DNA of 63,908 nt, the filler included, from Licmophora abbreviata (lineage: Eukaryota), in the NCBI GenBank assembly GCA_900291995.1. It is 15 parts of 15 records of this genome, joined end to end, with 100 filler letters (N's around TTAATTAATTAA, not from the genome) between each part and the next. Parts side by side here need not be neighbours in the genome. Positions count along the whole stretch, not along the records: positions 14,249 to 23,734 come from OLMU01004068.1; 14 more parts are not named here. One strand, given 5' to 3'. Below are positions 23,161 through 24,341 of this stretch, in pieces (the first letter of the stretch is position 1; the number at the start of each line of letters is the position of its first letter). The notes beneath the pieces are model-generated. The model was not told where the DNA came from. It saw nothing but the letters and a program-made list of their open reading frames with translations, and did no database searches. A program made the position numbers and the translations under genes.

Positions 23161-23301
23161 CGACGTCACAGTGTCGAACGGAGACGTTGCAATCACTACC
23201 ATGCAGATACCGGTACTGAAGATAGAGTAGAGTTCTTGTAAAGTAGCCAAGCAAGCAAGTCGCTCTACCATAGAGAAGAAGAGTGTATGATATAATTGAA
23301 T

Positions 23302-23734
23302 TTACTCGGACGCACAAGAGTAGTCCATCTGACTGAGAATCAAGGCCGTGATGAGGCCGTACAGCCCCAAGTTACCGGCAAAGACCTGAATGAGTACCGT
23401 TCCGACAAAGAGAGAATCTCCGCTGCTGGTGACTTGGCCTCCTTGATCGCCTGTGAATCCCATTTTCTTCCATGATTCTTCCATGGCACTTTGTGCTCCA
23501 ACAGCTCGTGTACCAGCGTCCGCCGCAATGCCAATCGCGAGTCCAGATGCCAGCGAGCAGAGACCGCAGCAAAGACCTGCAGCCATATGCGCAAAGGCAG
23601 TATATTGAGAATAGGTTGCGTATCCCGTGCCCGCTTCCGGTTTGGTGAACTTTCCATTGAGAATAACAGTGACAATGAGACCATAAATTCCGAGCACACC
23701 GGCCATGACCACTGGGATAATATTCTTCATGAGC
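23302..23734 (-). CDS. V-type ATPase proteolipid subunit c paralog, 5'-truncated by gap; atypical TM4 lacking the conserved Glu
   Basis: [20 protein letters not shown] (TM2), [32 protein letters not shown] (TM3) and [26 protein letters not shown] (TM4). Confidence 0.9.
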
Positions 23735-23834
23735 NNNNNNNNNNNNNNNNNNNNNNNNNNNNNNNNNNNNNNNNNNNNTTAATTAATTAANNNNNNNNNN
23801 NNNNNNNNNNNNNNNNNNNNNNNNNNNNNNNNNN

Positions 23835-24341
23835 CTTCACCACGTTGCAGCTTCACCACACCAGACCGGAAGTGCCAGTTGGGTGCCAGTTCCAAGTCGT
23901 CTGCTGTCTTTATAACCTCGAATCGCTGATGCTGCAACTACTCTGTCTGATCAACAATTAGAGAAACTTCGCACCTGGATGACTGCACAGCATATGCTCC
24001 CCACCATCACAACAGCCATATGTGAGCCTCTTCACTCCTGGCAGTCTAATCTTCCCCCCCAACACTTCAACATCCTCAAGAACCCTGACCTCACCAGTAC
24101 TCTTGCAGCTCAGGATAGTGTGGGATGGAACACGTTCTGTGAGGGCAACGTTATTCACAACGGATGGGCCACCCCACAACAACGCCACTTTGAGTCCCAG
24201 GATAGCGGGCAGACTGGAAAGCAGTGGGCCTCACGTTTGATTCGTGGCTTACGGGAGATTCAACATGCTATGTGGCAACATCCCAATGATTTGGTACACG
24301 GCGCTGAGGAGAAGGCACAACGGGACCTCCTCCTCCTATGA
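23835..24341 (+). mobile_element. Decayed non-LTR (LINE, possibly Ambal-like) retrotransposon, C-terminal ORF remnant
   Basis: QDSVGWNTFCEG...GW...QQRHF...TGKQWASRLIRGL..IQHAMWQHPNDLVHG resembles the Trp-rich W..RN...HG tail of diatom non-LTR polyproteins. Stops lie upstream and downstream. Confidence 0.6.

Follow-up and report, generated by a model that had tools for sequence, protein, structure and literature searches.

Introduction

Textbook and structural accounts assign one essential glutamate to each proteolipid of the rotor ring of the eukaryotic vacuolar-type ATPase (V-ATPase). Canonical subunit c (yeast Vma3, human ATP6V0C, plant VHA-c) carries it in the last helix of a double hairpin with four transmembrane helices (TM1 to TM4), whereas the fungal c' (Vma11) and the c'' subunit (Vma16) are precedents for single-copy, position-specific paralogs in the V0 ring. 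Here we describe, in a 63,908-nucleotide window of DNA from the diatom Licmophora abbreviata (GenBank assembly GCA_900291995.1), the 3' part of a c-type proteolipid gene in which this glutamate is replaced by glycine. The encoded paralog has the same four-helix double hairpin as canonical c, shares about 60% identity with stramenopile canonical c over TM1 to TM3, and is identical to canonical c in TM2 and in the GLYGLI part of TM4. Unlike canonical c, it has no membrane carboxylate, with Leu changed to Gln at −4 and Ala to Asn at +1 from the lost Glu and with Gly/Ala changed to Ser in TM3, and it displays an invariant 25-residue insertion in the cytoplasmic loop between TM3 and TM4, while its N-terminal tail on the luminal side is longer and contains an N-x-S sequon. 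It differs from c' and c'' in that both of these keep the essential Glu, c'' has a fifth helix, and c' is fungal, while the paralog belongs to the stramenopile side of the family.

Rings in which ion sites are fewer than hairpins are known. In the F/V-hybrid c-ring of Acetobacterium woodii and in archaeal multi-hairpin rings, some hairpins are site-less and the rings still turn. In these rings there is at least one carboxylate per polypeptide, in contrast to the present case, where a whole four-helix eukaryotic subunit has none. The A. woodii ring (PDB 4BEM) was also found by our structural search (chain 4bem_J, Foldseek E of 6.5e-6). An engineered counterpart is the yeast c''E108G mutant (named "Delete" in PMC8804929), in which the essential Glu of one ring subunit is likewise changed to Gly and which reveals the effect of one blank on a eukaryotic V-ATPase. 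This mutant is artificial, affects c'' and is strongly impaired, whereas the natural paralog has additional conserved changes and is under purifying selection. As described in PMC8804929, the glutamates in a normal ring are spaced by eight intervals of 36 degrees, one of 18 degrees and one of 54 degrees, each ring step is stabilised by a salt bridge between Glu and Arg735, and the function of the asymmetry that c'' introduces has yet to be understood.

In diatoms, V-ATPase surrounds the chloroplast and its activity is required for formation of the silica wall, and the enzyme raises photosynthesis in diatoms and coccolithophorids (10.1101/2022.05.26.493626). The words "proteolipid," "isoform," and "paralog" have zero occurrences in the portion of that text that is available. 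Full-text literature searches, which covered few subscription journals, turned up no paper on a c paralog without Glu in diatoms or haptophytes. A 2014 account of V-ATPases and pyrophosphatases in diatoms by Bussard and Lopez may list such paralogs. A Glu-less ring-type subunit maintained by selection would serve as a natural experiment on the number of proton sites needed in a ring, on how the stator arginine gets across a gap, and on how the H+/ATP ratio can be re-geared.

A c-type proteolipid gene that has lost its glutamate

The window, which is the whole stretch of DNA that was analysed, consists of 15 contigs chained by 14 linkers of the form N44-TTAATTAATTAA-N44 (28 runs of 44 N), and genes on the two sides of a linker are not neighbours. 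The Glu-less gene (23302..23734, minus strand) lies at the right-hand end of the contig at 14249-23734, and the open reading frames at 23779-24341 belong to a different contig. Its frame, which runs on the minus strand from 23733 to 23305, encodes 143 residues without interruption and is followed by a TAA stop codon (23302-23304). The frame is open at its 5' end solely because the contig ends there, a truncation that has no biological meaning. The missing 5' part, about 59 codons encoding the N-terminal tail, TM1 and the first loop, is beyond the contig end, and neither these codons nor any second c-type gene could be found elsewhere in the window by tblastn. The product is 88.8% identical to residues 60-202 of a full-length ortholog, P0003, which supplies the residue numbering for helices and alignment columns.

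All features below are on the minus strand. In TM4 (window residues 104-134; 23332..23424), the position of the proton-carrying Glu, equivalent to E137 in yeast, is occupied by Gly120 (GGT, 23374-23376). It is followed by Asn121 (AAC, 23371-23373), which replaces Ala, and preceded by Gln116 (CAG, 23386..23388) four residues ahead, where canonical c has Leu. Alignment of P0003 to solved c subunits using phmmer places its FAGN opposite FAEA in plant c1 and FSEV in yeast c'. TM2 (window residues 6-27; 23653..23718), which corresponds to the modelled helix 65-86 of P0003, contains no Glu. In the membrane part of TM3 (window residues 43-72; 23518..23607), Ser60 (23554-23556) and Ser63 (23545-23547) take the place of Gly and Ala in canonical c. 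Finally, the cytoplasmic TM3-TM4 loop contains a 25-residue insertion (23416..23490) that sits between two aligned stretches in the phmmer alignment. An earlier note, made from this DNA alone, had claimed that the TM4 Glu is replaced by Gly with Gln and Asn nearby, that TM2 is devoid of the alternative c''-type Glu, and that the TM3-TM4 loop has an insertion of about 20 residues. Translation of the frame and alignment to solved c subunits bear out these readings, with the insertion slightly longer than first thought.

The same note had considered that the missing TM1 could supply a compensating acidic residue. This way out is closed, since in 47 full-length orthologs and in the corresponding column table TM1 is normal (C-P-x-W-A-P ... 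GGAYGTAKAGQGI) and an acidic residue is absent from every membrane helix, TM1 included. Conserved acids in the orthologs are limited to two, both shared with canonical c: Glu/Asp in a loop (position 58) and Asp in a GDAG-type turn.

The Glu-less gene is conserved, constrained, and transcribed

Of 3352 candidates in a protein search, 2953 passed E ≤ 0.001, and we examined the 120 highest-ranking ones, which come from diatoms. These are 80-92% identical to the query over 97-100% of its length, and 119 of the 120 display the motif FA[GS]N[LI]GLYG (FASNLGLYG in 68, FAGNLGLYG in 48, and FAGNIGLYG in 3, with a single non-matching protein). The insertion is almost as constant, with the motif W[KR]KMGF[ST]GD in 115 of the 120. 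When the window product was aligned with 17 orthologs, LIQVFA-N and a 10-residue stretch of the insertion were invariant in all 18 rows. Named members include Attheya septentrionalis, Odontella aurita, Craspedostauros australis, Cyclophora tenuis, Fistulifera solaris, Epithemia, and Pseudo-nitzschia multiseries, and complete MMETSP transcripts are available for Attheya, Odontella, Craspedostauros, and Cyclophora. Since many of the relatives are complete transcripts of this kind, the insertion is coding and the gene is transcribed. An unspliced intron as the origin of the insertion was ruled out by these transcripts, together with the in-frame presence of the insertion in 115 of 120 relatives.

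Selection was quantified by comparing the window with 16 metagenome loci, which gave nonsynonymous divergence (dN) of 0.10-0.22 and saturated synonymous divergence (dS; > 2.4 or not computable). Across the 23 of 136 pairs with 0 < dS < 2.5, the median dN/dS was 0.07. Logan DNA contigs from two runs belonging to two studies span 23263-23430 and show mismatches only at 23347 and 23380, agreeing with the window at the Gly codon, these contigs being of low depth and one of the two runs possibly being the source sample. These sequence comparisons exclude both a sequencing error and a pseudogene, and the gene is under strong purifying selection. The earlier note had already argued against a simple sequencing error and had proposed looking for a conserved Q-x-FAGN clade; the first point stands, and a conserved Q-x-FA[G/S]N clade exists and is transcribed. 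The gene is a real one, for a c paralog specific to diatoms and Parmales, and its loss of the carboxylate is permanent.

The fold and nearest relatives are those of subunit c

The product matches Pfam PF00137 (ATP-synt_C) in two stretches, with an E-value of 1.7e-15 and a score of 57.4 bits against a cut-off of 24, and it has the two hairpins and four long helices of this superfamily. In phmmer searches with P0003, the solved relatives that scored best were c1 of plants (4e-34), followed by c' of yeast (3e-30) and subunit c of yeast or mammals (6e-29), with c'' reaching only 1e-15. An AlphaFold2 model, computed from an 81-row alignment headed by P0003, has a mean predicted local distance difference test score of 82.4 and four helices, at 19-53, 65-86, 102-149, and 163-193. 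In this model, the insertion extends TM3 and TM4 a few turns into the cytoplasm, with a short tip of low confidence (150-162) between them. Foldseek matched this model to c chains from yeast, human, pig, bovine, and Citrus, with E-values down to 3.6e-11, and its superposition on human and pig c gave a root-mean-square deviation of 1.3 Å and a template modelling score of 0.94-0.95 normalised to the target. Chains of c'' ranked below c, and rotor subunits from A. woodii and Enterococcus hirae ranked lower still. A search of the ESM Atlas yielded generic proteolipid clusters alone. The nearest relatives, both in sequence and in fold, are therefore c and c', rather than c'' or the prokaryotic K/c subunits, and the protein is a subunit c in which the TM4 Glu that marks canonical c is absent.

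Glu-less and other c-type paralogs in diatoms and Parmales

We use GL as a label for the diatom/Parmales Glu-less clade, to which the window gene belongs since it has both LIQVFA[GS]N in TM4 and W[KR]KMGF in the insertion. The clade reaches the early diatom Aulacoseira subarctica, whose member reads QVFAGNIALYG and has a different, Gly/Lys-rich insertion, and Parmales, where a representative search and two protein searches found it in Tetraparma gracilis and Triparma retinervis. This distribution indicates that GL is an old clade. Canonical c (FAEALGLYG) was found in a metagenome-assembled genome of Bacillariaceae and in Triparma laevis, and the genus Triparma therefore has both canonical and GL c. 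No GL member from other ochrophyte classes was present among the best 120 or 150 matches per search, and Ectocarpus contributed only canonical c among the matches listed.

GL is accompanied in diatoms by two other c-type paralogs with loop insertions, which we label TWK-A and TWK-B. TWK-A, from Thalassiosira and Cyclotella (P0131, P0281, P0290, P0523, P0529, and P0562), has SAWGTWKSG..., a long acidic/Gly-rich insertion in the TM3-TM4 loop, SAWGTWKSGVSL.., and a Glu that is kept in LIMLIFSEALALYG. TWK-B, found in a Eucampia transcript, P0527, P0528, and P0219, and also in P0548, has AAWGTWKSGMGLC... and AAWGTWKSG.. in its N-terminal half, GIAGE[IV]G for GDAG, and a loop insertion; its TM4 reads SVTILSF[SA]GAIGLYG, with Gly at the Glu site and Leu still at −4. 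In a 49-row tree, GL, TWK-A, and TWK-B are all on one side of a 97/89 branch, with canonical c on the other side, and TWK-A and TWK-B pair as sisters (97/90, subject to a warning about long branches). Since TWK-A retains Glu, this pairing implies that TWK-B lost Glu in a further, separate event.

A one-member cluster of unassigned lineage, P0149, reads SFAGATALYG with Gly at the Glu site, has a loop insertion, and sits on a branch of length 2.45. It could be a relative of TWK-B or another independent loss.

A second Glu-less clade in haptophytes

A Prymnesium parvum protein, P0140, reads MVLIQGTASALGMYG and is also Glu-less. We examined 117 of the 120 rows listed in a search with P0140, the three others being diatom members already found. 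Glu is present in 74 of the 117 rows, 42 are Glu-less and read LIQG[TC][AG]SAL (36 by pattern and 6 from printed tails), and one ends before TM4. One cluster of haptophyte Glu-less sequences includes a Phaeocystis cordata transcript, and the same Prymnesium assembly also codes for canonical c (P0389). The extra residues in the TM3-TM4 loop number about 9 in the haptophyte Glu-less proteins and 25 in those of diatoms.

The two Glu-less groups share several replacements. Position 175 is Gln in all 48 core diatom sequences, all 4 deep-branching ones, and all 7 haptophyte Glu-less sequences, and Leu in all 20 canonical rows. At position 179, which is Glu in 20/20 canonical rows, the core sequences have Gly (29/48) or Ser (19/48), the deep ones are evenly split between Gly and Ser (2 each), and the haptophyte ones invariably have Ser (7/7). 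Position 119 is Gly in 19/20 canonical rows, and Ser in 44/48 core and 7/7 haptophyte sequences (2 Ala and 2 Ser in the deep ones), while position 122, Ala in 19/20 canonical rows, is Ser in 48/48 core and 4/4 deep sequences and Cys in 7/7 haptophyte ones. Finally, position 47 is Gln in 34/48 core and 6/7 haptophyte sequences, its top two residues in the deep sequences are Val (2) and Glu (1), and canonical c has Met, Val, or Thr, with Gln in just 1/20.

We asked of the trees whether these groups have one origin or two. In a tree made with IQ-TREE from all columns (50 rows and 178 columns), the diatom/Parmales clade has support of 98/97 and the haptophyte Glu-less clade of 100/100. The sister group of the haptophyte Glu-less clade is the canonical c of the haptophytes Emiliania, Chrysotila, and Scyphosphaera (99/95), and GL is separated from both by a 98/92 split, on whose other side it lies with the canonical c of stramenopiles. 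A reduced tree, from which the trait columns (47, 118-122, 139-166, and 175-180) and five long-branch rows had been dropped, has the same topology, with the haptophyte Glu-less and canonical sequences together (98/96) and the stramenopile side at 99/99. The haptophyte pairing also appears in the 49-row tree (98/94). An approximately unbiased (AU) test did not reject a single Glu-less clade when all columns were used (p=0.131) and rejected it for the reduced tree (p=0.0046), where support for the GL clade itself falls to just 65/83 or the clade is unresolved. As far as these alignments go, convergence is the probable explanation for the two Glu-less clades, and the Glu-less design, old in diatoms and Parmales, was probably reinvented in haptophytes.

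The haptophyte Glu-less paralogs (P0140, P0327-P0365, and P0138) also have a proline-rich luminal N-terminal extension (..PPPPxPP..MP.G.LELCP..). In a Phaeocystis-like subclade (P0138, P0338, P0346, P0352, P0356, and P0364), a basic stretch and a hydrophobic segment are added at the N terminus, an addition that may represent a signal peptide or one more helix, similar to that of c''.

A candidate proton-blank subunit in the c-ring

The pattern of replacements suggests which surfaces of the subunit have been remodelled. In P0003 numbering, TM4 has changed at 171 (Met to Thr), 172, 175 (Leu to Gln), 176, 179 (Glu to Gly/Ser), and 180 (Ala to Asn), and nearer its luminal end at 188, where the canonical Val is Ala, Ser, or Thr. 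The positions matching stramenopile canonical c are 167-170, 173-174, 177-178, and 181-187, and a 17-residue stretch in TM2 has the same majority sequence in GL and stramenopile canonical c. When residues are assigned to helix faces at 100 degrees per residue, the changed positions in 171-180 would span the half of the helix with the lost Glu, and the kept 173, 174, 177, 178, and 181 would be opposite. Ser119 and Ser122 would be level with 179 and 175, respectively, as they are at a similar residue distance from the cytoplasmic turn on TM3 and TM4, the clustering of Gln175, Ser119, and Ser122 in space being deduced from residue counts along the hairpin. The ring-packing surfaces therefore look kept, while the face toward subunit a and lipid appears to have been rebuilt as an uncharged polar patch. 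Such a combination, in which the packing faces are kept and the face meeting subunit a is rebuilt, is expected of a ring subunit that passes the stator arginine without a proton.

We propose that the paralog is a low-copy member of the c-ring that provides a proton-blank step, a reading to which we give a probability of roughly 45%. The Glu-less paralog would assemble into the V0 c-ring beside canonical, Glu-bearing c, in a low and probably single copy per ring. Its outward TM4 face, where it meets subunit a, would be a polar stripe made up of Thr-Gln-Gly/Ser plus Asn, with the TM3 Ser residues behind it at equal depth, and it would slide past the stator arginine with no proton uptake or release, i.e., as a programmed blank step. 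One blank would widen the local spacing of glutamates from 36 to 72 degrees and, in a ten-membered ring, would change H+/ATP from 10/3 to 9/3. The insertion would stretch the TM3-TM4 hairpin into the cytoplasm, the side on which subunit d binds, and probably tags this one ring position for contact with d or with an assembly or regulatory factor. A blank may have become tolerable through the convergent changes to Gln, Ser, and Asn. The "silent" ring subunit put forward in the earlier note thus survives as the best supported reading, although it is still something that we infer.

Several points weigh against this proposal. In the yeast work reported in PMC8804929, every proteolipid glutamate is called essential (Hirata 1997, cited there), and c''E108G shows no growth at pH 7 with Zn2+ or Ca2+. 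Failure of this mutant on stringent media means that a ring not adapted to a blank pays a price for it, and the 72-degree gap left by a c-type blank would exceed the natural 54-degree gap at c''. The modelled hairpin extension might clash with subunit d rather than bind it. In addition, the case for convergence depends on leaving out the very trait columns that converge, because the all-column AU test does not reject a single clade, and no RNA run is listed for the exact stretch of the locus. A blank would nonetheless be harmful rather than lethal in an unadapted ring, since c''E108G still grows on yeast extract-peptone-dextrose (YPD) medium with Ca2+, according to the same source.

An unlikely alternative is that the paralog is a ring member serving as a brake or parking position, so that the rotor stalls or idles with the Glu-less face at the stator arginine, leaving free V0 sealed against leak or setting V0 aside for scaffolding or membrane fusion. 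Such a role would agree with two statements in PMC8804929, namely that loss of one ring glutamate severely impairs function in yeast and that uneven spacing is argued to aid autoinhibition of free V0, and the conserved cytoplasmic hairpin extension is a possible regulatory handle. A permanent stall in all rings, however, would end pumping, and the gene occurs in every named diatom of the listings examined, with just one canonical c type. The convergent Gln/Ser/Asn stripe would also suit passing the arginine better than blocking at it.

Next in order, and improbable, is a function outside the V-ATPase, in which the paralog would form its own ring, or one mixed with the other insertion paralogs, and act elsewhere as a pore, channel, or scaffold. 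Separate assembly is conceivable given that GL, TWK-A (with Glu), and TWK-B (Glu-less) stand together apart from canonical c (97/89). Against this, TM2 and the packing faces of TM4 have remained identical to canonical c over > 100 million years of diatom history, which is most easily explained by continued packing with canonical c and passage along subunit a, and no extra domain hints at a new partner.

Two further explanations are far less probable. That the paralog is a divergent diatom counterpart of c'' or of fungal c' is very unlikely: yeast c' is indeed the second-best solved match and is likewise a minority ring subunit, but it retains Glu, and the trees attach GL on the side of stramenopile canonical c, not the fungal one. 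For c'', the match is merely 1e-15, and the fifth N-terminal helix (TM0) and the Glu in the second core helix are absent here, TM2 having no Glu and the N-terminal tail of full-length orthologs being about 17 residues long and non-hydrophobic. The phmmer ranking, TM2 and the column table, and the modelled helices all contradict an identity with c' or c''. We give equally little credence to a remodelled site that binds another ligand or ion, such as Na+ or a small solute, and still transports it. Side chains of Gln, Asn, and Ser do surround the site, level with the lost Glu, Na+-binding rotor sites use Gln/Thr/Ser ligands, and Foldseek also returned an Enterococcus hirae rotor structure. To our knowledge, however, all known ion-binding rotor sites include the carboxylate, and there is no other acidic residue in any helix. 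Finally, the truncation at the contig end could be cited in favour of a pseudogene or of an error in sequencing or assembly, but such explanations are dismissed by the motif shared by 119/120 relatives, the dN/dS of about 0.07, the complete transcripts, and the DNA contigs that agree at the codon.

Possible re-gearing, chloroplasts, and silica

If our proposal of a blank ring step is true, algae with secondary red plastids would offer a natural re-gearing of H+/ATP and of glutamate spacing, with a possible tie to the V-ATPase that acidifies the surround of the chloroplast or mineralising vesicles. The lineages in which V-ATPase is associated with the chloroplast overlap those with Glu-less paralogs, which is suggestive only. 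The link to the silica deposition vesicle favoured in the earlier note has weakened: we mark down a role specific to silica or mineralisation because Prymnesium and Phaeocystis, which have an equivalent Glu-less paralog, neither silicify nor calcify. It is possible, and we suggest it only tentatively, that diatom rotors are built from several dedicated paralogs (canonical c, GL, TWK-B, TWK-A, and c''), with one or two blanks per turn, and that haptophytes have independently arrived at the same arrangement, again with Leu changed to Gln and a small residue in place of Glu. Source annotations name the Glu-less paralogs "16kDa proteolipid subunit," and with such ordinary labels, subunits that pump and subunits that do not may be lumped together when subunits are counted or their expression is studied.

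Gene structure, gene models, and luminal termini

In six genomic loci (L001, L002, L006, L009, L011, and L017), the TM1 coding region is interrupted by a single intron, which follows residue 35 or so, and eight further loci are colinear, being spliced transcripts or intron-less genes. The first exon is missed by many automatic gene models, which appear as 154-residue forms or have odd N termini (e.g., P0001 and P0002). In a Cyclophora tenuis sequence, P0118, the N-terminal half resembles TWK-B, whereas the C-terminal half is the same as in the species' own Glu-less P0055; this sequence is probably a chimeric transcript assembly.

The N-x-S sequon in the luminal N-terminal tail is conserved in the diatom Glu-less clade (Asn10 in 45/48 and Ser12 in 46/48), and nearly all c types examined keep a cysteine close to each luminal terminus (Cys15 and Cys199). 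Luminal glycosylation at the sequon or a disulfide between these cysteines is possible.

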